A stretch of DNA of 64,000 bases from Naegleria gruberi (taxonomy: Eukaryota), in the NCBI GenBank assembly GCA_000004985.1, contig GG738874.1, one strand, 5' to 3'. Position 1 is the first letter of the stretch; each line of letters starts with the position of its first letter. Shown in pieces: positions 8,500 through 58,161 of the stretch. The translations under genes were made by a program, and so were the position numbers. The notes beneath the pieces are model-generated. The model worked only from the letters and a program-made list of their open reading frames with translations. It had not been told where the DNA came from and did no database searches.

Positions 8500-8722
8500 A
8501 TGAAATTCAATTCTTTCAATCTCCAATTCTCTATTATTTATTTAATAATAGATCTATTCTCTCGGAATTTGCATGGAGTACACCAATTTAATGCAAACAA
8601 TTTAACAATAGTTACCCTTGTGAAAAACATCAAGGATCCAAAAAGTAGTGAAATTCAACAATAATTTTTCACCCAACATCATTAAATTTAATTTTATTTT
8701 TAAAATTCACAACTTCAAAAAA

Positions 8723-9553
8723 ATGTCTGAGCAAAACACCAAGAAGAATAAACCAATCAAAGCCAAAAAGAGTGCTGATAAGAAACTTGAACAAAAAACC
8801 GATGAAGAAATTCAAGATATGATCACAACAACACAATCTGGAGATGTTATGGGAGAAGTTGAAGAATTGGATTTTCCAGAAGATGATTTCTTGAAGGAAA
8901 TTGAAGAACAATTTGAAATGGTTTCTGCTCAACAAGCTTCGGAAGCTGCTGAATCGAGGAAAAAGAATAAAGTAGCTATCACTGAAGAACCAGTTCCAAA
9001 GTCAGATGCTGAATTAATTATGCAATCCGAGAATTCAGTGAAATATCAAAAGGCTCCAGTTTCATTCAGAGTTAATATTGTCAGAAAGACGATAAAGATG
9101 GTTATTATTCTTCACAAGATTCCAGAAAAGTATATTAAACTCGATGTTGAGGATGACCATTTCACAGTTGATACTCTTGGATATACTAGGAAATTATGGT
9201 TACAAAGAAAGTTCCCAGGTTTGATTAAAGTTAACAAGGAAAAGGTTGCTGCTCAATTTTTGAAGAATGGATTGGTTTTGGTAACTCTGCCAATTGTATC
9301 AATTCCAAAGGAAACATTTGACCATCATTTAGGATTAATCAAAAAAAAGCATGAAAGTAGAAAGATCAAATTCCCAACACCTGTCAAACAAAGTATTATT
9401 AAGAGTGCTATCAATTTGGAAAAGAAACGTAAACGAAGAGAAAGACAAAAGGAAAAGAAGGAGTTTATTGCACAAAATATGGACTTGAAGCAAAAGAAGA
9501 AGAAGAAGAAAAAGACCAATACAACTGAAACAACAACTGCTGAACAAAAGTAA
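8723..9553 (+). CDS. Small heat-shock-protein-like (alpha-crystallin/HSP20-type) domain protein with an acidic N-terminal and a lysine-rich C-terminal tail
   Basis: ATG at 8723 ('MSEQNTKK'). The central region 'VSFRVNIVRKTIKMVIILHKIPEKYIKLDVEDDHFTVDTLG...KVAAQFLKNGLVLVTLPIV' resembles an ACD/p23 beta-sandwich with its C-terminal 'A.F.NGVL.V..P' motif. The tail is K/R-rich and NLS-like. Confidence 0.4.
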   Translation: MSEQNTKKNKPIKAKKSADKKLEQKTDEEIQDMITTTQSGDVMGEVEELDFPEDDFLKEIEEQFEMVSAQQASEAAESRKKNKVAITEEPVPKSDAELIMQSENSVKYQKAPVSFRVNIVRKTIKMVIILHKIPEKYIKLDVEDDHFTVDTLGYTRKLWLQRKFPGLIKVNKEKVAAQFLKNGLVLVTLPIVSIPKETFDHHLGLIKKKHESRKIKFPTPVKQSIIKSAINLEKKRKRRERQKEKKEFIAQNMDLKQKKKKKKKTNTTETTTAEQK

Positions 9554-9583: not shown

Positions 9584-12500
9584 CTACTCTTTCTTGGATG
9601 AAGGAATGAAAACTTCCTTAGCTGGGGCTCTATTATTGTAATTGGACGACATACTGAATCCATAACTTCCTGCTGTACAAATGCAAAGAACATCACCTTC
9701 ACGTGTTTCACTAGATATTGGTCTATCATTACCAAAAACGTCACCACTTTCACAAATTGGTCCCACAATATCGGCAACCATTGTACTTTCAGCTGGATCA
9801 TCACTATCAGGATTGCTGATCTTGGACAAGTTGACAATTTCATGATGGGAATTGTACAAGGTTGGTCTGATGAGTGAGTTCATACCAGTTTCAATACCAA
9901 TAAATAATTTGAAATTCTTATTCTTAATTTGTGTAACACGAGCTAACAAGACACCAGCATTGGCTGTCAAAAATCTTCCAGGTTCCATACAGAGCTTGAC
10001 ATTTGTTGGATTATTATTTAACTTGAATTCGGTCATAGCTTTAGCAACTTCGCCCAAATCCAATTCAGTTTGCTTGTAAGGCACATAAGGAACACCAAGA
10101 CCACCTCCACAGTCAATTAATTTAACATCTTTAGCCAATTTTGGATATTCTGAAATGAGTTGAGTCAATGTAGTAGCAGTCTTCTTCCATGCTTCAGCTT
10201 CATCCAAAATACCACTTCCAACGTGAGCATGCAATCCCATAACTGTAATACTAAATTGTTCACACAATTCAATGGCTTGAGGAATGTCACTAATGTGAAT
10301 ACCAAACTTGGATTGAACACCACTTGTTTTAACCTTAGCATGGTGACCCTTACCTGCACCTGGATCAATTCTCAATAGAACAGACTTACCCCTCAGTAAT
10401 TCTGACCAATTCATGAGTGGATAAAGAGAATCAATGGTTAACATGACTCCCAATGAGATAGCTTCTCTATATTCCTTCTTTGGAGCAAAGTTTGGAGTGA
10501 ACAAGATTCTACTCTTATCAATATTAGGGAAGAGATTACAGACCATTCTCACTTCATCAATGGAGACACATTCCAAACCGAAACCGATACCTTCGAATAT
10601 CTTGAGAATTTCAACATTTGGATTGGACTTGATAGCAAAGAAAATGGTATCAACTGGTCCTCCACACTTAGTTGAAATATTGATGAGCTTTTGAGCATTG
10701 GCATAAAATTGATCAACATCATAAACATAGAGAGGTTGATCTTCAGCTTGCATCAATTCGAGAAGTTGATTTTGCTTGACACGCCACCAAACATGTTTAC
10801 CACTGACATCGTTAATCTTTTGTTTTTGAGTTTCGAAAAGTTCAGTCCAAGATGGTCCAATATATTGGGAATCAATGGCTTGCTTAATAAAGACCCAATC
10901 GTGTAATTCTTTCAATAATTGTTCATTGGAATTGTTTTGATCGAGCAAGAAAGTCAAATTGACATCAGAGGCAGCCAAGGCAACAGAATGAATCTTTTGT
11001 CCAGAGAAATACTTCAAACCAGATGAAAGACGAGGCAAGAATGATCTAATATTCTTACCAATCAATGACAAGGCAGCACATGGTCCAATAATTTCAACTC
11101 TGCAATTCATAGATCTTAAATCATTAACAAGCTTGTTCAAAATATCATTGTCCAACTTGGCTGTAGCATCAAAAGTGATGGTAATATTGGCCTCAGAGGT
11201 TGTAACAAAATCTACAGAAATATTATACTTTTTGAATTTGGAGAAAACATCGGCCAAGAAACCAACTTTTTGCCACATATCCAATGTATCAATAGATACC
11301 ATAAGAATGTCTCTTCTGATACAGATGCACTTGACGTGTGGTGTCTTTTCTTCATAGGTTAAACTTGTGACGTGTTCTTCTGATGACTTTTCTTCATCAT
11401 TTTCACTTTGAATGAGAGTAATATATTCCTTATCAATTTGCCCAGATTGGAAACGTTTCAAAAGCTTGACAGATCTAATTCTAATTTGAATATCGAATTC
11501 TTGTAAGAGCTTGAGACTTCTTGGTTGTAAAATCTTAAAGTTATCAGAGGTGGCAATTTCTAATGCTTCATGATAAGATAATTCCAAAACAAACTTGGCA
11601 TTTGTTGTTTTCATGTCAGAGGATGTGTAAATTCCACCAGTATTTGTCCAAAAGTCCACTGAACCAATATCAAGTTTAGTAGCATAAATTGCCACAGAGA
11701 GGTCAGAATTTGAACCTCCAACTCCAAAGAGAACAACATCACCCTTTCCATCACAACCCATATTTCCTTGAGTGATGAGAATGTCTGCTTCACTGGTTTT
11801 TAATTCTTCAATTAAATCAGTATCAACGAGTGGAGAATCATAATTGGCTCTCAAATATTGGTCTTGCTTTCTTTGCTCGTAAATGGTAAAGTTGACCTTA
11901 TCACTGTGGGTCACTTCTTCAACAGCCGTAGTTAAATACTTCTTGCTATCTAACAAGGCAGCTGAAAATGAATGATTAATTTCTTCAGATTGTAAGAATT
12001 CTAACAAGAAATTGCAAACCATTTCACTATAATATCCAATAATTTTAGCAATAACCTTTGGTGTAGATTCTGATAATAAATTAACTCCAATAAGGGATTG
12101 TTTCATCTTTGCTCTATATTCATTAAAAGTAACAGTTTCAAGAGCTGGATATTGCTTGTACAATTGACAGAGTGGTTCTAAAAATTCAGTCAAATATCTT
12201 TCAACAATACTTTCAGATTGAAGTGATTCAAATGAATCATCATCCTTCTTTTGTGATAATGATTGAATATATTTCAACATTTTAGTACCTTCATCTTCAT
12301 TCAATGTAGAAGGAGCAACAATAATAATCTTTGCATTTTCATCCAATTCATGTAAACGTTTCTTCTCCGATACAATTTGGGACAAGATAAAATTCAAACC
12401 CTTCTTTTTAGTTAATAAACCAGAATCAAACGTGCACAAGTAAAATTTAGAATGATGATGAGTTTTCATCAATGAAAGAGTGTTTGATAAAACGGAACCC

Positions 12501-12661
12501 GAAGCAAAAACAGGAGAAGTTGAATATGATGATAAACTATTTATATGATGTGATGATGATTCAACTCCTTCAAATACTGTATTCTCATCCAACAAACGCT
12601 CCTCTCTTCTGAAGAAACTATCCGAACTATCAGAATTGTTCATCATTTTTTTTAATTTCAA
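9584..12661 (-). CDS. Bifunctional aspartokinase / diaminopimelate decarboxylase (LysC-LysA fusion); intronless, 1025 aa
   Basis: The N-terminal half carries an amino-acid-kinase fold ('DVVLFGVGGSNSDLSVAIYATKLDIGSVDFWTNTGGIYTSSDMKTTNAKFVLELSYHEALEIATSDNFKILQPRS') followed by ACT-like repeats. The C-terminal half is a PLP-dependent DAP decarboxylase ('IFFAIKSNPNVEILKIF', 'HAHVGSG', 'IDCGGGLGVPY', 'ICESGDVFGNDR', 'CTAGSYGFSMSSNYN'). Confidence 0.85.
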   Translation of the reverse strand: MKLKKMMNNSDSSDSFFRREERLLDENTVFEGVESSSHHINSLSSYSTSPVFASGSVLSNTLSLMKTHHHSKFYLCTFDSGLLTKKKGLNFILSQIVSEKKRLHELDENAKIIIVAPSTLNEDEGTKMLKYIQSLSQKKDDDSFESLQSESIVERYLTEFLEPLCQLYKQYPALETVTFNEYRAKMKQSLIGVNLLSESTPKVIAKIIGYYSEMVCNFLLEFLQSEEINHSFSAALLDSKKYLTTAVEEVTHSDKVNFTIYEQRKQDQYLRANYDSPLVDTDLIEELKTSEADILITQGNMGCDGKGDVVLFGVGGSNSDLSVAIYATKLDIGSVDFWTNTGGIYTSSDMKTTNAKFVLELSYHEALEIATSDNFKILQPRSLKLLQEFDIQIRIRSVKLLKRFQSGQIDKEYITLIQSENDEEKSSEEHVTSLTYEEKTPHVKCICIRRDILMVSIDTLDMWQKVGFLADVFSKFKKYNISVDFVTTSEANITITFDATAKLDNDILNKLVNDLRSMNCRVEIIGPCAALSLIGKNIRSFLPRLSSGLKYFSGQKIHSVALAASDVNLTFLLDQNNSNEQLLKELHDWVFIKQAIDSQYIGPSWTELFETQKQKINDVSGKHVWWRVKQNQLLELMQAEDQPLYVYDVDQFYANAQKLINISTKCGGPVDTIFFAIKSNPNVEILKIFEGIGFGLECVSIDEVRMVCNLFPNIDKSRILFTPNFAPKKEYREAISLGVMLTIDSLYPLMNWSELLRGKSVLLRIDPGAGKGHHAKVKTSGVQSKFGIHISDIPQAIELCEQFSITVMGLHAHVGSGILDEAEAWKKTATTLTQLISEYPKLAKDVKLIDCGGGLGVPYVPYKQTELDLGEVAKAMTEFKLNNNPTNVKLCMEPGRFLTANAGVLLARVTQIKNKNFKLFIGIETGMNSLIRPTLYNSHHEIVNLSKISNPDSDDPAESTMVADIVGPICESGDVFGNDRPISSETREGDVLCICTAGSYGFSMSSNYNNRAPAKEVFIPSSKKE

Positions 12662-13062
12662 TTTTTATTTAAAAACGAAAATTATAATTGTTAATACCCA
12701 AATATTAGATGTGATGATATCCAAGATGAAGTAATGACCTGTTTAATATTATTATAATTTAATCATGGTGATGACCTATTCATCTCAGAAAGTGGCCCTA
12801 ACCTTTTTTGGATATCTATTACAGTGTAACATTACTATGGGGATATCAAGAGATGATTTTGGCGCCAAATTTCAAAGCTTTGAAAATATCAAGGCTTTGT
12901 TAATTTAAAGTTTAACTCAATAATAGCAAGTAAAGGGAAACAAACTTTGTGCAAAGTAAAAAAAACAAACACAACATCACTCTCCATCATTCTCCTGATT
13001 GAGTCAATTCAAACAAGCCTTTCAGCACAAGATACAACACAGCAATCGTTCTCATCATTAGC

Positions 13063-31842: not shown

Positions 31843-34800
31843 GCAATTAATCAGATACAATCTGCTTTTATTAATGCTATGATTAGTTTAAAAGAGTCGA
31901 ATAGCAACACAGAGAGAAATTGGAAGCTGTACATATTATTTACTATTGTCCATATTCATGTTTGGATAACAACAATCATTGTTGGAATACAAGGAAACTT
32001 TAAAATGGGCCTCTACGGAAATTGGGTGTGGAAGATATTGAACTATTTAGTGACATTATCTTTGGATGATTTGCCTGATAGTGTCATGTCATATAATGCA
32101 ATGATAGGTGTCTCTTCTATTTGTATTACCTTCTCAGTTTTTGGGCTTCTGATATTTTACTACTCTGCCAAACAATTTCAAATTGCTAGCAGGCATATGA
32201 AATTTCTTCAATTTATAATGAGAGTTTATGGTTTTTTAACGTTTTTTGCAAGTTTTACTATGGTTTTTATTATGACCTCTTTTATTGATTGTAACTATTC
32301 TAGTTCAGTAATTTTTGAAGGATTTGATCAACCACAAATGGTTCTCAATAGATTTCCATCTCAAATGTGCTTCTCTTCTACAAATATTACAATGATTGTT
32401 TTGAGCTATGTCGGAATTCTTGCATTAATGTTATTGACATTCATGAGTGTTTTTACTAGAGGAGAGACACATGTAAAAGCAAGTAGTAGCCCCTTTGTTT
32501 CAGAGCATGTGCTATTTCAAGTAGCAGTTTTGATAATTACCCAATTACAAATAACCCTTAACTATTCTATCCCTTTTGAATACTCGTACCTGAGAAGTAT
32601 ATCTCATATAGTCTTATCACTAATTTTATTACCTATACTATTTTACTATTTACCCTTCTTTAAAAGAGTTGATAATTCAATAATGGTTGGATTATGCCTT
32701 GCCAAGTCCTTCCTTGGTGTCGCACCCCTAATTTCTTTTCTTGTAAATACACAAGGAGATTGGGGGATGGGTTTAGGATTTTCTCTTTCTGGATTTGGAT
32801 TTATTCTCACTGGTTTCTTGATTGGTTTTATTGTTACGGAAATATATACTAGACTTCTCTACTATAGAGCAAGAAAAATTATTATTACTGCCTTAACAGA
32901 ATGTGAGGTTTTGATTATTGATTTTGATGAAAATACTAGTGATGCTGATAGATATCGTAACCTTAGATCACTTTTTGAGAGAGAAGCCTTCTCGTTATTT
33001 AAACTATTCGAAGAGAAGAAAATGATGAGACACTTGTCAATGTTTTTCAAATTTTCAATGGTGTCTGGCAATAAGGGAAACTTGGATGATAGTTTTCTAT
33101 TTTCTGATGTTGATTTAGTTGTATCAATAATCAAATCTGTGGCGCAACAGAAGAACTTTCAAAATTACCCTCAGCTGATCTTAACATCAAGCATAGTCTG
33201 TGCACATTTTTGGGACCCTGAGAAAAATGGATTGGTATCTCATACTCCTCAATCTTCATCGTATGAATACGCAGTTGCTTTACTTAAAAAGATCAAGGCA
33301 AGTCAATTAGGATTTTTGTCTGATTTAGTAATGAAAAGTTTATTGAAACAATACCATACTGCATCACAAAATGAAAGTAGTGGAAAACTATCAGAACTGA
33401 AGGGTATTATTGATATTAAGGAGTTTATTTCAAAGTTAGGAAAGAAAATGGAAGATATAACAGTACAAAGGAAAATATTTTGGAAAGAATTGATGAACGA
33501 TGTTGTAGACTATGGCAAAATAATCAACATTAACAGAACAATTGCAAAATTAACCCTAGAGTGCAACACTACATTTGAAAACTTGATGAGCTATTTCCAT
33601 AGTTATGACAAAAATCTTCTCAGATTATTTGCCAGTTTCAATGAAAAGGTTTTATTCAATCAACAAAGAGCTGATGAGTTGTATCAAGATGCATCCTTGA
33701 TAGAAGATGAAGATTCGAAAAGAATTTCAGAAAAGCAAGCTCTGACATCATCAATCAACAATACCTCAAACAGTAGTCTTCAAAGTCATAGGTTTAAACC
33801 TGGAAATAGAATTTTACCTATAAGAGTAGGAACAAGAGTTAATGTTGACCTTGAAGCCGATTCAAATAGAATATCAGCTAAAATATTCGATGGTTTGGAG
33901 AATGGAGATTTTTCGAAAGAGCTAAACGAAGATCCAACTGCACTCGATCTTGCTGAGGCTGCTGATTCCCCAGAGATTAAAAAGGAAAATTTGATAAGAA
34001 CTGCACTAACAACTCCATTGAAACCTGTTGCCATCTACTTTTCTTACATTTCTTTGATAGGACTAATTATTTTAATGTTTTCTGGAGCTGTTGCACTTTC
34101 ATTATTTACAGTTATTACCTCGACCAAGAACCTTACAGATATTAAGCAATCATGCATTCCAGCATTGGGTTCAGTTCGTTTGATTTCTGATTTAAGAGTA
34201 AACCAGATTTTTAGAACATTATATTCAGGTAATACAACCTTCTCCTCCACTCTACAAAAATTTGGATTTTCTAGTATGAATGATACTGTAAATTACCATA
34301 GAGGAAAAACTTTGGATACCATTGAAAAATTCAAGCATTTAGAAAAATTAGCTTTTAGTGGAAAATGGAGTGCTGAAATGTTTCACGATTATTCAACTGA
34401 CTCTACAGAAATGTACTATCCGGAAATTCCTCACCACAACAAGGAGGGACATTTTATTAATGCTAGACCAAGAAATATGTCTGTTTCTGGTGTTACAAAC
34501 ACTATGATTCAGACTGGAAAAGATTTACTAACCTATTCTGATTCTCAGTATAATGAAACAATAGGTTCTTTTCAGTTTATGTATCTTTGGCACAATAGAG
34601 ATACCTTACCAGATATGTACGGAAAATTCTGTAATACTATTTCGTCTAGATTCTACTTTGGTATTCAAGATATGGAGAGTGTGTATGGGTACTATTTGAC
34701 AGCTATTGCAATTGTGACAGTACTGATATTCATATTTATGATTGCAATGTTCATTTTCCTCAATAGGAAATTAAAAATGATTCTCAAATTGTTTGAGAGA

Positions 34801-37110
34801 AACCTTCCCAAAGATGTAATTGGAAAAGTTTTTCATGAAATCAAAGCCGATGATACAGTACATGGATCTTCTAACCATTTATTGCAAAACCCATCACTGA
34901 AGATTTCAATTCTGTTTATGCTACTGCTACTAACATTTTTAATGGCAACTATAGTATGCTTTGTAATTGTGATTTCAACCATTAATAGTGCAAAAGAAAT
35001 AATTGGAAATATAGATGCTTCAACCAAGATTGCCACCACTTCTCAAAGAGTTTCATTGCATATTGAGGAAATTTATATTTTTGGTATTTTGCAAACAAAT
35101 ATGTATCCCATCAACAATGAGGAATTACTCACCCCTGAACAAATTTTTGAATATCACGAAGGAATGGATCAGTTAACAATTGACTTGGATGAACTTTGGA
35201 ATCGCCTTCTGTATGGTGATATTAATACTGGAGATGCTGTTCTTGTTGGATTATATCCTGAAATAGACAAGATTATTGAGGGTTACAACTGCACCAATAA
35301 TACATCAGCCAATTGTGGAGAAAGTTTGAACGACTTGCTAAACAACCTCATACTCAAAGCAACCAAGATTAATGAAATTTATGTTGCCCTTGATAAGAAT
35401 GAGAGAATAATATTTGATGAATTTTTTTCTACAATTTACATGATTAGCAATAGAGTGACAGATTCAATGCTTAATTTCATTGATATCTATGTCTCCAGTG
35501 TTCAACGTAACGATTCCTATGTTATAGTAATTCTGTTTGGAATAGGTGGCCTTTTCATAATGCCAGTTTTGTTGATCTATATTTTGAACGTTCTTTCTGG
35601 TCAATTGAATGAAATTTACTCATTACGTCTCATTTTGAACTATGTGAACATTGATATACTTGAATCAAAGGAACAACTGAGAAACTTTATTCTTCACAAC
35701 AATCTGTCACGAGAAAAGAAAAAGAAAAATCAAGTTTCTAATAATGTAGAAGAGGACAAGGTCAGAAATATTCTAAATGCCTCTGTCGAAGGTTGTTTAT
35801 TATGTAATCATAATTATGAAATTGAAATATACAATCCAGCAGCTCAAAGGTTTGTTTTTTCTACTTTACTATTTATCTAAAACAAAATTTTAAAGAATGT
35901 TTATGAAACAAGTTAATGAAGTTATTGGATTGCCAATGTGGACTCTATTTGAAAAGAATTGCCAGGATAGAATCAAACTCATCCTTCAAAATCTAACAAA
36001 AACTACTGGTAGTATTGCAAATGGTGAAACAGCAGAACTCGATGGACTAAGAAAAAATGGAACTCTCTTCCCAGCACGTGTTAATATATTTTGGACAATG
36101 TTCGATTCTAAACCAGTATTCACTTGTTTCATTAAGGATGTAACAACAGAGAAAAAGCAAAATGCACTGTTGGCCGAAGAGAAGAAGAGATCTGAAAATC
36201 TTCTCAGAAATATTTTACCAGAATCTGTAGCAAACAAATTGAAGAATGGAGATACATTCATTGCAGAAAAACTACCAGATATTACATGTTTCTTCTCAGA
36301 TATGGTTGGGTTTACTACCATATCTAGTCATTTGAATGCTAATGAGATTGTTAAAATGTTGAGCTCCATAGTCAGTGGATTTGATAAGTTAACAGATAAG
36401 TATGAATTGGAAAAGATTAAAACAATTGGAGACAGTTATTTCTGCGTTGGAGGATTACATCAAGCGAGTGACCACCCTGAGAGAGTAGTTAGATTTGCTA
36501 TTGAAACCTTTGGAGTGGTTAGGGATTATAACAATTCACTATTTAAGGATACAGATCCCCAATCTGTTTCTCAAATAGATATTAGAATTGGTATTAATAC
36601 TGGTTCAGTTGTTGCTGGAGTTATTGGTATTAAGAAGTTTGCATATGTAAGTTAGAAATTTAGTTATTCTATTAATTGATTCCTGTTAATTTAACAAAAT
36701 AGGATTTATGGGGTGATACTATTAATGTTGCTTCGAGAATGGAAAGTAATTCTAAACCTGGCCGAATCCAAGTTTCCAGATCAACCTATGAAAGAGTTCA
36801 CGATCTAGGATTTGAATTTGAGGAAAGATCAATTGAAGTGAAAGGAAAAGGAGTAATGAGGGCCTATCTTATCCACGAAAAACACCACACAAGTGCCACA
36901 TTGACCAACAAGGATATTGAAATAGTTACGGGAGATACACAGTACTTTGCAAGTCCTTTATCTGGTAGTGAATCACCCCTTCCACCAGCCTCTAGCTCCA
37001 ACCCACCCTCAATTAAATCATCACCCAATAATAGTGAATCTAAGAGAGAAGCTATTGATCCAATGGCTTATGATCGTTTAGCAACATTTACTATTGGACA
37101 AAAGGACTAG
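31843..37110 (+). CDS. Polytopic membrane protein fused to a PAS domain and a class III adenylyl/guanylyl cyclase catalytic domain; exons 31843(open 5')..35849, 35896..36646 and 36703..37110
   Basis: About 1330 aa with at least 12 hydrophobic helices in three clusters. A phase-2 GTTTGT donor at 35850 and a TTTTAAAG acceptor at 35895 join it in frame ('...NPAAQR|MFMKQVNEV') to a PAS-like module ('ELDGLRKNGTLFPARVNIFWTMFDSKPVFTCFIKDVTTEKK') and to the cyclase homology domain ('FFSDMVGFTTIS', 'KIKTIGDSYFCVGGL', 'IRIGINTGSVVAGVIG'). A GTAAGT intron at 36647..36702 splits '..KKFAY|DLWGDTINVASRMES'. Confidence 0.8.
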
Positions 37111-37114
37111 AGCT

Positions 37115-38770
37115 TTATTTCAGTAAACCAGCATATTCATTTCTCTTCTCTAGTCTCAATTTGTAGTACAATCCTGCAATTGTAACACCAACACCACATA
37201 ACAAACCTATTGCCAGAATAACAACAATTGCAATAATTACACCAGTTGAATTATCACTGGCATAGTACTTGTCATAAACTGCTTGTACTTCGCTATTGAC
37301 TTGGTTTCTATATTTTCCAATCTTATTTACATTCTTGTCAGGATAAACTCTATTGGTCAAAAAGATTGTGAATAAATTTCTTTCTGGATCTCCACAAACT
37401 TGAGTACCAGAAAATCCTAAATGCAAGAATGTTTTCTTTGAGAGACTTCCACATGATCCATTTCCTTCAGCATTGGTATCCCTGTAATAATTAATTATTC
37501 GAATTAGTTCAGTTTTTTAACTTACCATCCTAAAGCTCTAGAGCTTTGTTGAGTGTTCTTGACAGATGTAAAAAGTGAGAAAGTTGTTGAATCAATGAAA
37601 TTTTCCCTTCTTCTGAACATTAATTCGTCCATAAAATTGTAAACATCTGGCAATGTTGAAAAAATTCCAGCCTTAAAGTGTTAATTATTTAACATGATTA
37701 TTGTCAACTTACATGTCCTGAAATACCGCCCTGTGCATAACAATTTTCATCAGAAACATATCCCTGAATCAAATCATGATGATAAACCTCGTCAAGCCAA
37801 GCAGGTGGAATATTTACATCATATCTATTTGGAATGTATCCACTATTTGACATTCCAAGTTGTTCCAAAACATGTTTCCTCACAAATGCTTCAAAATAGC
37901 AAGTTTCATGACCAGGAGCATTCAATCCAATTTGTGATACGCAATCACTTCTCAAATCATCATTTGAAATTTGCAACAGATTCATATTCTTTTTAACAAT
38001 TTGTCCAATAATATACATGAGTGAAATCATAGACAAATCACTATAGACATATTTTTCACCTATAATTATTTCTCAGTCACCCAACAAATAATATTTAACA
38101 TACCTATATTGTGAGCCAACTTTTCATTCAACCAAGAATTAAAAATCTTATTCGAACAAGTAAACACTTGTGGTGGATGATAAATCTCCGTAGCACTACA
38201 ATTAAACTCAACAGTATTATAGGTAGGATTTGGATCTGGAGCCAACCCTGAATTGTGCAATAATAAATTCTCAATAGTAATTCCACTCTTTCCATTCACT
38301 CCAAATTCAGGAAAATACTTTACAACACTATCATGCAATGAAATCAAATCCTTCTGATACAACAAGGCAACTGCTGATGTGGTCGAAATTACCTTGGTCA
38401 CCGATGCCATATCAAATTTGGTCGTATTTGTATTCATCACTCGTTGTTCATCATCATTGTAAGTAAACTTTCCAAAGGCTTTAGAATAAATTGGACCATC
38501 CTTATTGGCCACTAAAAGAACAGCACCCGGAAAAGCCTTCTCAGCAATGCCACTATTTATAATATTCTCCAGATTGTCCCAACGATGATCATTTGTTTGA
38601 CCATTCACTTCATTGAAAGTAATAAAAAGTATCAACATCATAATCATCATGAATATTTTCCTTGTCATCATCATGTTGTCGATGGAACGACAAGTGCTGC
38701 AAGAGGATCCGATTCGATTTTTGATGCTTCCTTTTAATGATGAAGAATGCAAGGATGGCAATTTGGGCAT
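37115..38770 (-). CDS. Beta-lactamase-like serine hydrolase (LACTB/EstB-type) with a signal peptide and a C-terminal TM anchor; about 4 exons
   Basis: The S-x-x-K active-site motif is 'FDMASVTKV'. 'HLGFSGTQVCGD' is the KTG/H.G box. Exons are joined by GTAAGT donors (introns about 37997-38037 and 37491-37530). The C-terminus 'GVIIAIVVILAIGLLCGVGVTIAGLYY' is a TM helix. Confidence 0.7.
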
Positions 38771-38867: not shown

Positions 38868-40611
38868 TTAGAGATTGGATTGAAGTTGGAGGATAACAGT
38901 CTTGAGGGAAGTCCATGCCTTCATTCCCTCTTCTCCTGCTTCTCTACCAAAACCAGATTGTTTAACACCACCAAATTCGGCAACATGCAAAACATTGTGA
39001 TAATTATTGATCCAACAAACTCCACATTTGATTCTGTCAGAGAAGGTGAACATATTGTCAACATTCTTAGTGAGAATGGCAGCTGCCAAACCAAATTCAG
39101 TATTATTACATCTGGTGATAACTTCATCGAGAGTCTTCCATGGCTTCAGAATAGATTGAACTGGACCAAAGATTTCTTCTCTAGCAATACGCATATTATC
39201 ATCAACCTTATTTAAATTGAACAGAGAAAAACAAGTTAAATTATTGTGTGTTAGAATTGAGATAATTGTCAAAATAAACTTACATCATAGAAAATTGTTG
39301 GCTTGACGAAATAACCCTTAGTAGGTAAACCTTCAGAATCACCACCAATTAATAATTTAGCACCTTCCTTTTTACCAATTTCAATATAGCTCTTAACTCT
39401 GTCATATTGTTCCTTGTCAACCAATGGTCCAATATTAGTTTCATCATTCAAATTGTATCCAATCTTGAAAGTGGCGACATGTTCCTTGAGCTTTCTAACA
39501 AATTCATCATAGATATCAGCATGAACAAATGTTCTACTTCCAGCAGTACAAGCTTCACCATTATTATTGAAAATACTGAAAGCAGCAACCTTAACAGCTT
39601 CATCAACATTGACATCAGGACAAACAACAACAGGTGATTTACCACCGAGTTCCAAATGGACTTGTTTCAAATTAGATTCGGCAGCTCCCTTCATGACAAG
39701 ACGACCAACTTCAGTAGATCCTGTGAATGCAATCTTACTGACCTTCTTGTGACTGACGAGTGGAGCACCAGCATTTGGACCATCACCCATAACAACATTG
39801 TAAACACCCTTTGGAATACCAACCTTTTGACAAATGTCAGCAAGTTTGAGTGCAGTCAATGGAGTTTGTTCAGATGGCTTCAAAATGACACAGTTACCCA
39901 TAGCCATAGCAGGAGCAACATTAACCAATGAACACCACATTGGGAAGTTCCATGGAGAAATAACTAGACAAACGACTCAATTATTAAATTCTAATAATGC
40001 TACCTACCACCAACAACACCAACTGGGCTTCTTTGAGTATAAACGTGGAATTTCTTATCAGTAACACAAATTCTTCCACTCAATTTATCAATCCATCCAG
40101 CACTATATCTCCAAGTATCGGTAATACTCTACATTTCCACAAAATAATAATTAATTTTAAATTGTCATATATCCACAAAAACATTCCACAAAATAATTAA
40201 TTGAAATTAATTATATCAATACTACTCCGCATCACATCATCAACCTACTTTAATAACATAACGGTTAACTCCGATAGGTGTACCATTATTAAGTCCTTCC
40301 AACAAGGCCATTTCCTCAACTTGTCTATCCCATTCATCAGCAAGTTTATAAATAAGTTCTTGTCTCTTTTGTGGTTCCATATTTCCCCATTCTCCATTCA
40401 ATGCTTCTTCAGCAGCTTGAACAGCCAATTCAACATCTTGTGCACAACCATCACTAACACTACACAAAACTTGTTCCGTAGCTGGACAAATCAAGTCCAA
40501 CTTTTTTCCGCTCTTACTCTCCACAAATTCACCATTGATGAATTGTTTGAGTTGGGAAGGTTTGATGGCTTCAAATTGCTTCAAAACTTGTACGTGGGAA
40601 ATGTTGCTCAT
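38868..40611 (-). CDS. Aldehyde dehydrogenase (ALDH1/2-like), about 5 exons
   Basis: The N-terminus is 'LKQFINGEFVESKSGKKLDLICPATEQVLCSVSDGCAQDVELAVQAAEEA'. The core is 'ELGGKSP' and 'FNNNGEACTAGSRTFVH' (catalytic Cys), with 'EEIFGPVQSI' at the C-terminus. ORFs 40240..40611, 39269..39940 and 38868..39272 are linked by short GT-AG introns. Confidence 0.8.
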
Positions 40612-53301: not shown

Positions 53302-56300
53302 CTATGCCAACAATGATCTTCTCTCATCACTTGTTGAAGTCTTATCATAAGACTTTTGGAGAGCATGTTTCGAATTCTTATCCGAATTCATTCTTTCTCT
53401 CACTTTTTGGATACCGAGATTGGATCTGAGTTGTTTGTAAGGCTTCCACTTTCTCTTTTCTCTTTGAAGAAGCTTTTCTAAAATTCTACCAAACCAAGAC
53501 TTATCGTTAGCACATGTAATGGCTTTGATAAAACGTAAAATGTTGTAAATTGTAAAACCTTTGATTAATTGTCTGAAAGGAATTCTCCAAATTAAGAACA
53601 TCTCCCAAAAGTATCCAATAAAGTAGTGAGCTGCACAATATCCAAAGAGACGTAATTTGAATTCCATTGGGAAACTAATAAATTGGAATGCTGTTTTTAA
53701 ATAATGGCATGGTTCAAATAATATGTAAGTGGTAAACAAGTACAATATAGTAAGGAGCAAGACATAGATAAAGTTGTGAGTTATGAGAGGTCTCTTAAAT
53801 GGCTCACTAACACTCTGACTGACAGCTGAATTCAATACTGCAAAGCAACATGCAAGGTATGTAATAGTTGTTTCAAAACTAACAATATTGTCTTTTGGAT
53901 CTTTGTGAAGTGGAGCAGGTTTGTACCATGCTGTATCGAATAAAATTTCAAAGAAAACTCCCAACATTAAAGCAAATCCCCAGAAAATTTGACCAAGCAA
54001 ACTAACAAGAACAAATCTAGAGAAGAGAGATTCTGGTGGTTTTTCCTTATGGAGAGTTTCTGTGGCTTTGGAATTGGCCATCAATAGAACAACAGGTAAA
54101 ATAATGAACATGTCAATATACAAGTATTGTGTGTCACCAATTGTTGCATTTTGTCTATAGATGAGAACGGCCGCAAAGAATTCAAACAAGCTATACAAGG
54201 CCATGTACTTGAACATTTGGAAACTGGAAGAGAGTGCAGCTCTTCCTTCCTTAACTACATCCACAACTGATCGAATTGAATTTTGAACTGATGTAAAAGG
54301 TGCAGCAATACTTGCTTCGGCCTCTGAAAGAGAAACACCCACATGTGCTGCTTTCAAAGCCTCAACATCGTTACTGCCATCTCCACACATTACAGTCATG
54401 TAGCCCATCTTGATCAACTCTTCTACCACCTTCATTTTACCAGAAGGTGAAACTCTAGCATAGATATGGCAACATGAAAGAATAATATGGAGCAATGAAG
54501 GATTCTCAGCATCAACATACTCAATCTTATTTCCTCTTCCCATCTTGGCATTTTCATTGGTCTTTTCCACATAATCCTTGTGTGAGAAAACGATTGTGTC
54601 AAAAATCTCACCAATAATTGCCAATTCAAAGTTTTCATTTCTAAAGTCCTTTCTGATAATTTCACGTGAGGTAAGGGTAGGGGCTTTTGGATCATCAACA
54701 TTTCTCCAAATAATCTTATCATAAACTGCAGGGAGATAATGTTTCATAGGATTGCCTAGTATTGCATTATCGTTAATATCCTCATTGATTGATGGACCAT
54801 TGGTAGTTTGCACATGGTTGATGGCAAGTGCTTCCTTGCTTGCAAATTCAGCCAAATAAAGAGTCTTTCCCTTTGGAAGCATATAACATTTACGAGCAAC
54901 ACAAATTGTCGTGTATGGATTATCGCCAGTAATGACACACGCTCTCAAGTTAGCTTGGGTTAGTGTTCTAATCACAGATGGTGTTTCTGGTTTAAGTTTG
55001 TTTTCCATGCAAATTAAACCAAGGAAATCCAGTTTAGATTCAACTTCCTCTCTTGTGAGCTGGTCAGTATATTTGGCAATAAGAGGATCCACCAAGTTTC
55101 TTCCAAAAGATTCAGGTTTTTCTAGAATTTTTAACAATTCCTTATACTTGATAACTCTGCTGGCACATCCTAGAACACGATAACCCTTATGTGCATACTT
55201 GTAGAGAACCTTTTCAAAATCACCTGGAATTGTTTGAGCATGTGAGAGAGTCTTGAGCATTTCAGCGGAACCCTTAACGAAAAAGTGCAAATCTCCAGTA
55301 TTTTCGTTTTGTGCTACCACTGACATTCTTTGCAAACCAGATTTGAAATCAAAAATCTTGAGGATGATAAATGATGCAGTCTTTTGTGGTGCAGAGATGG
55401 TAATAGAGTTGGTAGACGATGCTTTCTTGTTATTTTGATTGGTACTAGCTTTATCTGATTCGACCAAATCCCAGGTTGTGGCTTCGAATAATTTAACGTC
55501 CAAAGGATCACCTGAATTAAAGTATTATTAATTTGAATTACAATTCGATTTAAAAAAACTTACCCACTAGCTTTCCAAAAACATATGACAAATTGTGACA
55601 ACAAGCCATACAATGAAGTAATGAATTGGTGGCATGCTTTAAATGATTCAACATTTCATTATCCTTAATCAAGTGTTCGAATCCCTTTGGTCCTATTGGA
55701 ACAACGCCATGCAAATCAAGACCATCTCTGGTTAGTGTATTTGTCTTATCGAAACATGCCATATTGACACGCCCACTGACATTAATTCTTGGAGGACTGA
55801 TTATTTGAGTGAATTCAACAAGCAGCGTGTAATAACTTACCTGATACAAAATATTCCCTTTTTCTTGAGTCTAGAAATAGCCATAGAAACACAAACACTC
55901 ATTGAAATAGGCAATGCAGGAGGTACAATAGTAGTTAATAAATCAAAACAAGAAATGATCATTTCACCCAATGGAGCATTCTTAACACTTTGATTGTACA
56001 AACTGTACGAAATACCAGCAATACCAAACAAGAACATCATGAATAAGAATTTCATAGAGTCACTGTAAAAAGAAAATTGGTTTGGCTTGGGATACAAAAT
56101 TGACAAGACCAATTTTCCTTTTGCTGTTTGAAAACCAGTTTGAATAACCATGGCACAAACAATCTCCTCTTCTGAGGATTCATAGAGAGCTGTTGGCTTA
56201 TTCAAAATTACTTGAGTACCAGAGAAGAGAGTATGAGTCTTATCGCGCATACAATTGTACTTTTCTGTTTCAGTTCCAGATTTTGGTATTGGAACTTTCT

Positions 56301-57708
56301 TAGTAGGAGTGCTTTCACCTGTGAGCATACTTTCATTCATAATGGTTTGTCCATGAAGCAAGACGCAATCGCAAGGTATTACCATACCATTTTCAATTTC
56401 AATTAAATCCCCAGGAAGAAGCTCCGTTGAATCAATACGATGTTTGGAAATACCTTTCCAAGAGAATGCATCATCTATTGATAAGACAGGTTCAGAACTT
56501 GATGATACTAACATTGATCTCTTTTTCTTTGCATTGGATGCATAGTGTTGATGAATACTATTGTGTTGAGAAAGTTTGTTAACTCCACAATTAAATGTTG
56601 TCATTTCCTTAAGTTTGACCATGTTTGTTCTTGTTTCATACATTGAAATAATGGATGAAATACTTGACATGACTGCAATTGCAACTGCATACACATAATA
56701 ATTTTCACTCAACCAAACACAAACACTGGCAACCTGGAAAATATAGAATGGATGTAGCACTTCATCAAGCAATAGAGAAATGATGTTTCTAACCTCAGTC
56801 TTGATGGAATTAGATCCGAAAAGCATTTGTTTGAGAGTGTTGGAGAGTGTATTGAATGCAAATTGACTGCTAATAGTGTGAGCCATTGTGTGAATATTAG
56901 CAAATGGGAAGAGAGTAAAATGGTGAGCTCTATCAAATCTATCAGTTTCCTCATTGTAAATGTAAATTAAATTTCTATATTTGAAGCATGAAATGGTAAC
57001 TTCAATTGGCTTTGGTAAGGACAAGTGTTCATCACTACTCGTCTCTAATTTACCAATCTTGTTCAAAACTTGATACAGGTTTTCATCAATTTTCAAAGTT
57101 TTCTTTTCAATCATGCAAATAGTAATTTGACCTGTTTCTCTCGCTTTGATAAACACTGCAGTAGCATTCTTGAATGATGTTCCTTTGAATATATCATTCT
57201 TTCTCAAATCATCATCAGCATTAATTTTTGCAAGATACTCTTCATGGTTTTCATTGCTGGCTACGGAGAGTCTATTGTGTTGAACTCTGTCTTTCAACCA
57301 ATCATACCAATAGCAGAATAGCAAAACCAAGCCAAGAGAAAGAATAACCGAGAGCCAAAACAAGCAAAACCAAAGCCAAGAAAATTGCAAACCAACACAA
57401 CAAGCCATTTCATGAACCTCTTCATCACCCTTTGAAATATCTGGCATGCTTGTAAAACTCTCCACAGGAGAAGAGTAATTCTTGAGAATCAATTTAACAA
57501 TTCTCTTTTCAATGTTTTCCACATCTTCCGAAGGTGTCCTCTCTTTACAACAAGAATCGAACCCTTCATTGGTTTGTTCTTGAATTACCACAGCAGATGA
57601 AGAGTCTTCAAATTTATCCAATCCTTCATCATCATAGTGGTATTGTTGTTGATGTTGTTGGGCAGCATCACCTTGTTGTTGACCAAATAGTAATGGCTTG
57701 TTTTCCAT
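53302..57708 (-). CDS. P5B-type P-type ATPase (ATP13A2/Ypk9-like); exons 57708..55841, 55796..55564 and 55511..53302. The frame stays open upstream to 57900, so a longer N-terminus is possible
   Basis: Motifs include the actuator 'MLTGES', the M4 'IVPPALP' that is diagnostic of the P5B subfamily, the phosphorylation-site 'CFDKTNTLT', 'MCGDGSNDVEALKAAHVGVSLS', and C-terminal TM helices. Introns are phase-2 GTAAGT (55840..55797) and phase-1 GTAAGT (55563..55512), both with AG acceptors. Confidence 0.8.
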
Positions 57709-58161
57709 TAAATTTCCCTCCGTTATTGGTGAAAATAATCGAGATGCAAAAGATGGCGACACTGTAAGGATATTCGAGAGCAGTAATAACAACACAGTAA
57801 AGATATTGCTCTCGTTTTTTTTCAAACATCCTTCAATGAAATTCTCAGCAAGGAGTTTGAATACATGTAGTGCAAGTGGTAATGTTTCCTGGTAAGTCAA
57901 ACATCAAATATTATTTTCTGTCCTGGCTTGTGAAAGTCATAGATTTTTCGGACTATAATGACAACCAGTATTTTGAAACAAAATCGAATGTTGATGATGC
58001 AAAAACATTTGGCTATGTATGTTATTAATAAGGGAGATTGTTTACGATTTTCTTAATTATATTACCTGGACAACAAATTCTCCTCTCGTCAGACTCTAAT
58101 ATTCAGCAGATAGATGCTCTCAGTTCCCATATTTGAACTACTCATCGAGTAGAGATGCTCC

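Follow-up and report, generated by a model that had tools for sequence, protein, structure and literature searches.

A probable diaminopimelate decarboxylase joined to a predicted aspartokinase-like pseudokinase in Naegleria gruberi

The stretch of DNA analyzed here (the window) covers 64,000 nucleotides of contig GG738874.1 of the Naegleria gruberi assembly GCA_000004985.1, and its minus strand carries, at 9584..12661, a gene that joins an aspartokinase-like region to a diaminopimelate decarboxylase (DAPDC). In the list of open reading frames (ORFs) it stands as a single uninterrupted frame of 1025 amino acids, counted from a mechanical TTG. Stop codons lie directly upstream, and the first ATG, at 12646, gives a product of 1020 amino acids that is 100% identical to the NCBI/UniRef entry 'predicted protein [Naegleria gruberi]' (P0001). 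A first-pass annotation, made from the letters and the ORF list, had described a continuous fusion of LysC-like and LysA-like halves, and the ORF list together with the Pfam, NF006515 and TIGR01048 matches bears this description out.

Pfam finds in the protein the C-terminal part of AA_kinase (profile positions 111–234 only), a weak ACT domain, Orn_Arg_deC_N and Orn_DAP_Arg_deC. The best NCBIfam family is NF006515, 'bifunctional aspartate kinase/diaminopimelate decarboxylase', whose profile positions 95–860 (of 861) align to residues 180–1020, leaving the N-terminal ~95 unmatched; the score of 750.6 bits falls short of the equivalog cutoff of 802. The domain order of this family, an aspartokinase (AK) region, two ACT domains and a DAPDC, is present in a single polypeptide. 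Bacterial AK/DAPDC fusions (NF006515/PRK08961) have the same order, including a conserved linker between the second ACT domain and the DAPDC, and are collinear with the Naegleria protein over residues 180–1020 at 30–41% identity. Compared with them, the Naegleria protein adds a disordered N-terminal extension and an acidic insert of ~40 amino acids, and its kinase catalytic motifs are substituted; the set by which we recognized a competent NF006515 kinase (KFGGTS, GRGGSD with R198 and D202, and WTDVPG) is not found in it. The decarboxylase half scores 310.8 bits against TIGR01048 (lysA) over residues 627–1020, above the equivalog cutoff of 297.9. On sequence grounds, the gene is best regarded as a pseudokinase version of the AK/DAPDC fusion already known from bacteria, a version common to a small eukaryote-like clade. 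Its product is probably a DAPDC, which would convert meso-diaminopimelate (DAP) to L-lysine and CO2, carrying an N-terminal remnant of a bacterial aspartokinase-ACT enzyme that no longer phosphorylates aspartate.

The kinase-like half and the ACT module

To compare residues, four Naegleria proteins and five fusions from bacteria were aligned with E. coli AKIII and numbered as in AKIII, the sequence of which was checked at residues 147–279 and 294–448 against PDB 2j0w alignments. In N. gruberi, the KFGGTS site reads SKFYLCTFDSG (12419–12451), the GRGGSD site reads FGVGGSNSD (11702–11728), and the WTDVPG site reads FWTNTGG (11633–11653). K8, G10, G11, T12, S13, S39 and T45, as well as F184, R198, G199, G200 and D222, are replaced in all four Naegleria proteins and kept by the five bacterial fusions. 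The replacements are not fixed within the genus, as N. fowleri and N. lovaniensis have N at the K8 position, and the GRGGSD position varies by species (GVGGSNSD, DINSPNSD or DISPNSD). Three further eukaryote-like fusions, P0015, P0016 and P0017, also have none of the three kinase motifs and carry different substitutions at the same sites, while a KFGGTS-like motif is present in 56 of the 65 full-length representatives that are not eukaryote-like. We take K8 and D202 to be catalytic, E119 and R198 to bind aspartate, and the glycine loops to hold the phosphates, as is reportedly established for AKIII in the work of Marco-Marin (2003), Kotaka (2006) and Kikuchi (1999). As residues of all three kinds are missing, aspartokinase activity is predicted to be absent, and the kinase half is predicted to be a pseudokinase that no longer phosphorylates aspartate.

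The kinase-like domain is nevertheless not decaying, as its fold is held and it is under purifying selection. The kinase C-lobe of E. coli AKIII (LysC; 2j0w/2j0x) aligns with the Naegleria protein and the overall fold is kept, whereas K8, G10, G11, R198, G199, G200, D222 and others are gone. A Foldseek search with the AlphaFold model aligns ~540 columns with the full-length aspartokinases 2cdq, 3c1m and 2j0w; the predicted local distance difference test (pLDDT) score is 80–90 in the kinase N-lobe, with low confidence across the former nucleotide-binding segment. Against N. fowleri, the ratio of nonsynonymous to synonymous substitution rates (dN/dS) is ~0.22 for the kinase N-lobe and ~0.08 for the C-lobe, and the proportion of nonsynonymous differences (pN) lies far under that of synonymous ones (pS). 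All dN/dS ratios given here are rough, as dS is near saturation.

Constraint on the protein is strongest in the ACT module, which shows 94% identity among Naegleria species and a dN/dS of ~0.04 and retains two lysine-site signatures, MWQKVGFLADVF and ISVDFVTTSE. M318, G323, F324, L325, S338, V339, D340, T344, S345, E346 and T352 are unchanged in all four Naegleria proteins; we take these positions to be the AKIII lysine site or sites of feedback resistance. The ACT region of E. coli AKIII aligns with that of Naegleria at E = 1e-14 and shares all lysine-site positions. Since these positions are all unchanged, the ACT module would be expected still to bind lysine, and the pseudokinase-ACT module may serve as a lysine-sensing and/or dimerizing regulatory appendage of the decarboxylase. 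A more specific proposal, which we offer tentatively, is that the dead kinase and ACT domains have taken on a new role as an internal lysine sensor with allosteric control over the DAPDC. Naegleria and the protist lineages of P0015, P0016 and P0017 would then share a previously unrecognized family, with kinase loss in parallel among bacteria (P0010, P0013, P0041 and P0049). The gene may encode the regulated terminal step of a DAP pathway assembled by horizontal transfer, and a pathway of this kind would explain how Naegleria, unlike most phagotrophs, needs no dietary lysine.

Relatives and origin of the fusion

The orthologue in Willaertia (JBEGDK010000039, 7715–9269) occupies the same syntenic position and encodes a DAPDC-only protein of 422 amino acids. 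Upstream of it lies a 286-nt spacer of 24% GC; the ORF does not extend into it, and tblastn found no trace of a kinase or ACT domain in 17 kb of this locus. The deletion of the kinase-ACT module in Willaertia indicates that the module is dispensable for the core function, catalysis.

In an exhaustive search of representative sequences, P0015 (938 amino acids), P0016 (N-terminally truncated) and P0017 (971 amino acids) rank between Naegleria and the bacteria and have clade-specific insertions in common with Naegleria. A word-indexed profile search with the fusions gave almost exactly the 11 proteins that a single sequence had already found. Two of P0015, P0016 and P0017 lie on AT-rich contigs, one beside genes for TPPII, a GCN1-like HEAT protein and NIF, and the other beside EMC7. 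These contigs (Logan SRR23962323 and JGI 3300062347) have 30–35% GC, are apparently intron-poor and carry genes typical of eukaryotes. The TPPII neighbor of P0015 is at most 37% identical to named proteins, which come from animals, Planctomycetes metagenome-assembled genomes (MAGs) and one EukProt entry.

Relationships were examined with neighbor-joining trees of 200 bootstraps. In a tree of the ACT and DAPDC regions of 88 sequences, the seven eukaryote-like fusions are monophyletic in 180/200 replicates, and in a tree that includes named bacterial genomes they are so in 140/200. With the DAPDC alone, Naegleria and Willaertia group in 200/200 and all eight eukaryotic sequences in 55/200. In these trees, the eukaryotic fusion clade nests inside the bacterial fusions. 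Among bacteria, the intact fusion occurs mainly in Gammaproteobacteria (Xanthomonadales/Lysobacterales, Steroidobacteraceae, Woeseiaceae, Legionella and Coxiella) and is also found in scattered MAGs of Myxococcota, Bacteriovoracaceae, Rhodothermaceae and Thermoanaerobaculia, in every case at 30–40% identity to the Naegleria protein. As the closest non-eukaryotic relatives are gammaproteobacterial-type fusions, the best reading is that the gene is an ancient horizontal acquisition, by now old and fully domesticated. The first-pass annotation had proposed a bacterial-style fusion acquired horizontally, and this proposal is upheld by the nesting within bacterial fusions, the patchy eukaryotic distribution and the integration of the gene into its host. 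A recent transfer, on the other hand, does not fit, as the acquisition predates the split of Naegleria and Willaertia and the gene belongs to a wider eukaryote-like clade.

An alternative on origin is vertical inheritance since early in eukaryotic history, e.g. by way of the mitochondrial endosymbiont, with no later transfer. Related DAPDCs do occur in scattered protists, all three of them stand-alone (P0098 from Andalucia godoyi, P0071 from Gocevia fonbrunei and P0118 from Anaeramoeba flamelloides), and on the three eukaryote-like contigs, and the age of the transfer has allowed full amelioration. We nonetheless consider vertical inheritance improbable: the fusion is concentrated in Gammaproteobacteria and not in Alphaproteobacteria, the eukaryotic fusions nest within bacterial ones and are distributed very patchily among eukaryotes, and a single group of all eukaryotic DAPDC domains has weak support, the 55/200 given above. 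Horizontal acquisition thus remains the reading that we prefer, and for the donor there is a weak lean towards a Legionellales-like, amoeba-associated source. In the tree with named genomes, the eukaryotic clade stands beside an AT-rich cluster of Legionella, Coxiella and a Bacteriovoracaceae MAG, but the basal branches of this tree are very short and compositional attraction may play a part in the placement. The DAPDCs of Andalucia, Gocevia and Anaeramoeba, phagotrophic protists of three further lineages, are of the type related to the fusion, and the Andalucia DAPDC carries an N-terminal extension of ~175 amino acids in which no domain is recognizable.

Loss of the kinase extends beyond the eukaryote-like proteins. 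The kinase N-lobe is deleted in the high-GC variants P0010, P0013 and P0041, and the kinase motifs are lost in P0032, P0049, P0056 and P0061; several of these kinase-decayed relatives are high in GC and therefore probably of bacterial origin. The apparent decay of the kinase is a recurrent event in the fusion family and is not unique to eukaryotes. The proteins can be arranged in an evolutionary series that runs from the active bacterial fusion, through the pseudokinase fusion of Naegleria and its allied proteins, to the stand-alone decarboxylase of Willaertia. In P0025 (1338 amino acids, on a 10.5-kb ENA contig), an intact AK-ACT-DAPDC follows ~470 residues of a transporter-like multi-pass membrane protein, which may be a three-way fusion or a read-through of the gene call.

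The decarboxylase half and the source of its substrate

The decarboxylase half looks fully functional. Solved DAPDCs in the PDB align with it end to end (E = 1e-41 to 1e-52), and in this alignment every catalytic motif is kept in Naegleria. The pyridoxal phosphate (PLP)- and substrate-binding motifs of LysA (TIGR01048; E. coli 1knw/1ko0, Aquifex 2p3e) are all found, including CESGD and GGGLG, the two that the first-pass annotation had picked out. The AlphaFold model is confident over this half and superimposes on E. coli LysA with a Foldseek template modeling (TM) score of 0.79. Constraint is strong, with a dN/dS of ~0.04 against N. fowleri and 86% identity among Naegleria species. What separates the Naegleria enzyme from a monofunctional LysA is its 640-residue N-terminal pseudokinase/ACT appendage. 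The most likely function of the protein is that of a monofunctional, possibly lysine-regulated enzyme that would take DAP to lysine.

In this role the enzyme would supply lysine from DAP, which could come either from the digested peptidoglycan of prey, in a salvage route of one or two enzymes, or from an endogenous DAP pathway. Precedents for salvage exist. Passages of Butenko et al. 2020 (PMC7052976) describe bacterivorous euglenozoans that have lysA alone or with dapF, among them Bodo, Neobodo, Leptomonas and diplonemids, and propose that they obtain lysine from cell-wall DAP. In rumen and anaerobic ciliates, lysA is listed among the transferred genes (PMC13198582). Naegleria likewise is a phagotroph with a lysA of bacterial origin and a murein-degrading enzyme, as N. 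gruberi has a bacterial-type MurQ. In Willaertia, the orthologue is a stand-alone lysA of just this kind, whereas the Naegleria gene is derived from a fusion and keeps a conserved regulatory remnant. A further difference from the salvage cases is that Naegleria grows in defined medium as a lysine prototroph, and salvage may therefore not be the sole role of its gene.

Several points weigh against a decarboxylase with a dead, regulatory kinase half. D202, T221, G225 and K257 are mostly retained in the kinase-like domain, which makes residual nucleotide or ligand binding possible. The N-terminal alignment reaches only 16% identity, so that residue equivalences there (e.g. E119) are uncertain, the catalytic residues are assigned after reports on AKIII, and regulation of the DAPDC by the ACT module is a step that we infer. 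Furthermore, a passage of PMC8068756 that reports Nerad 1983 describes growth of N. fowleri in defined medium without lysine or bacteria, and gives Thr, Met and Ile as requirements in minimal defined medium. Lysine prototrophy implies that N. fowleri must possess some complete route for making lysine de novo. If lysine is made through the DAP pathway, ending in the present enzyme, an active aspartokinase has to be encoded somewhere else and salvage alone does not hold. The alpha-aminoadipate pathway, which is known from other Discoba, offers an alternative de novo route for Naegleria. Within the 64-kb window there is no asd, dapA, dapB, dapL or dapD/C/E, or dapF, and among the accessible papers a literature search found no discussion of the fusion gene or of a Naegleria lysine pathway.

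The same nutritional pattern, as that passage gives it, would fit a lysine-dedicated aspartokinase, and with it a truly bifunctional protein in which a highly divergent kinase, still active, opens an aspartate pathway that leads to lysine only and the DAPDC performs its last step. Such a protein would share its architecture with the bacterial bifunctional enzymes, to which it is identical in domain order, and it would account for the purifying selection on the kinase-like domain and for the four retained residues. We regard it as unlikely, however, as the glycine-rich loops KFGG and GRGG are both gone together with K8, R198 and D222, the diverging substitutions in P0015, P0016 and P0017 form a pattern of relaxed catalytic constraint, model confidence is low just where the nucleotide would bind, and Willaertia has deleted the module. 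Of the two steps in lysine biosynthesis, first and last, that the first-pass annotation had suggested, the last, from DAP to lysine, is therefore credible and the first is not, the kinase residues being gone and this half being lost in Willaertia.

It is also conceivable that the decarboxylase has shifted to ornithine, arginine, D-ornithine/D-lysine or carboxynorspermidine and forms no lysine, as fold-type III decarboxylases switch specificity readily and weaker matches to DokD, SpeA, NspC and BtrK are seen. This is very improbable, given that the TIGR01048 cutoff is passed and that the best 14 PDB matches are all DAPDCs, with ornithine and arginine decarboxylases far lower. The DAP-recognition motifs EPGR, RPxxY, CESGD and YxxxMxSxYNxR are intact, and a lysine-type ACT site is conserved alongside.

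With a DAP-to-lysine enzyme as the preferred reading, the label 'Bifunctional aspartokinase/DAP decarboxylase' would wrongly credit Naegleria with an aspartokinase. The gene bears on the growth of N. fowleri without lysine and on the use of cell-wall DAP by bacterivorous protists. The biochemistry behind it, that of a lysA in a phagotrophic protist, is known in kind; what is added here is a likely example of the decay of an enzyme into a regulator. Humans lack a counterpart of the enzyme, and the pathogenic N. fowleri conserves it, but since the host can provide lysine, it is doubtful whether the enzyme would make a useful drug target.

The locus and its neighbors

The features of the gene and its convergent downstream neighbor are collected in Table 1. 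The N-terminal extension is poorly conserved across Naegleria species (38%). A targeting peptide was considered for it and rejected, from its acidic, Ser-rich make-up, this poor conservation and the predicted disorder alone.

Table 1 Features of the fusion gene and its downstream neighbor (window positions)
Feature	Position	Strand	Remarks
Complete intronless coding sequence	9584..12646	-	ATG at 12646; TAG stop at 9584-9586; TTG at 12661 merely a mechanical start
Ser-rich N-terminal extension	12452..12646	-	ORF residues 6-70; not in bacterial fusions; predicted disordered
Kinase-like domain	11462..12451	-	ORF residues 71-400; predicted aspartokinase-like pseudokinase
Acidic insert between kinase-like domain and ACT1	11342..11461	-	Residues 401-440; specific to the eukaryotic clade; predicted disordered
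Tandem ACT regulatory domains	10877..11341	-	Residues 441-595
Lysine-site signature MWQKVGFLADVF	11243-11278	-	Retained in ACT module
Lysine-site signature ISVDFVTTSE	11192-11221	-	Retained in ACT module
Interdomain linker	10742..10876	-	Residues 596-640; 'WW(R/H)' segment common to bacterial fusions
PLP-dependent DAPDC domain	9602..10741	-	Residues 641-1020
PLP lysine in FFAIKSNPN	10616-10642	-	DAPDC motif; aligns with E. coli K54
HAHVGSG	10211-10231	-	DAPDC motif (HxHxGSG)
GGGLG	10091-10111	-	DAPDC motif; within residues 851-857
EPGR	9974-9985	-	DAPDC motif
IRPTLY	9854-9871	-	DAPDC motif (RPxxY)
CESGD	9740-9754	-	DAPDC motif; residues 970-974
YGFSMSSNYNNR	9629-9667	-	DAPDC C-terminal motif (YGxxMxSxYNxR, C-terminal Tyr)
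Convergent downstream neighbor	8648..9553	+	~301 amino acids; no Pfam domain; 3' end 30 nt from the fusion stop

Orthologues of the fusion gene, at 75% identity, lie on a 778-kb contig of N. lovaniensis and an 840-kb contig of N. fowleri, and an ENA contig holds a fourth Naegleria-like copy. In N. fowleri, the fusion gene is followed by a convergent gene of ~303 amino acids, a HAUS6/JAB gene and an SMC gene, and the downstream order in N. gruberi is the same. Willaertia magna, a sister vahlkampfiid, has lysA, a convergent gene of ~307 amino acids and a JAB gene in succession on a 1.29-Mb contig. The neighbor at 8648..9553 thus keeps its position in N. fowleri and Willaertia; a gene of ~300 amino acids and then the HAUS6/JAB gene are found in all three species, with the SMC gene beyond in N. 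gruberi and N. fowleri. On the 5' side of the fusion gene (window 12662–13062 onward), synteny with N. fowleri ends, and none of the window ORFs beyond 13063 has a match in the 10 kb that precede the N. fowleri fusion gene, which places a rearrangement breakpoint next to the gene.

The identity of the product with the N. gruberi entry marks the window as nuclear DNA of this species, and its GC content is ~34% throughout. A comparison of codon usage and of GC content at third codon positions (GC3), which the first-pass annotation had called for, gives host-like values, with a GC3 of 0.29 and a correlation in relative codon use of r = 0.96 with 21 other long window ORFs. The flanking genes of the window are eukaryotic and include those for a G-alpha protein, an SMC-like protein, a P5-ATPase and a RING protein. 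Taken together, the synteny, composition and distribution of the gene indicate that it is evidently a resident amoeba gene, old within the Heterolobosea and acquired before the Naegleria/Willaertia split. Bacterial contamination or a chimeric assembly, to which the bacterial best non-eukaryotic matches and the intronless frame might point, is refuted as far as sequence evidence goes and has next to no probability, in view of the orthologues on large N. fowleri, N. lovaniensis and Willaertia contigs, the conserved downstream order, the host-like GC3 and codon usage, and the eukaryotic flanking genes; the synteny with N. fowleri and Willaertia and the codon usage likewise support the first-pass annotation where it had suggested that the locus may be free of contamination.

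Introns are less telling. The neighborhood had been called intron-rich, and this is true of a part of it: the G-alpha gene is split (14654–15649/15709–16275), the P5-type cation ATPase is divided across two long ORFs (53302–55503 and 55837–57900, minus strand), and the cyclase and aldehyde dehydrogenase genes are also split by short introns. The window also holds many long uninterrupted ORFs, however, for which the description does not hold. The N. fowleri orthologue of the fusion gene is likewise intronless, and among annotated orthologous loci, with a gene called intronless when its span equals 3 x residues + 3, so are 6 of 12 N. fowleri genes and 6 of 10 Willaertia genes. With roughly half of the neighboring genes in related species equally free of introns, the lack of introns is uninformative and cannot serve as the mark of foreign origin that it had been taken for. 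Intronlessness and composition were both rejected as signals of horizontal transfer, as the gene is the same as its neighbors in both.

Two other places in the window may be noted. An ORF at 38066–38770 (minus strand) has a beta-lactamase/DD-peptidase (PF00144) match to the first third of the profile only; it adjoins the aldehyde dehydrogenase exon at 39269–39940 and may belong to an intron-bearing gene for a bacterial-type, cell-wall-related hydrolase. At 31879–36655 (plus strand), a TmcB-like TPR ORF of 1333 amino acids ends 16 nt ahead of another that has PAS and adenylate/guanylate cyclase domains; the two probably form a single gene, interrupted by a very short intron or by a frameshift.

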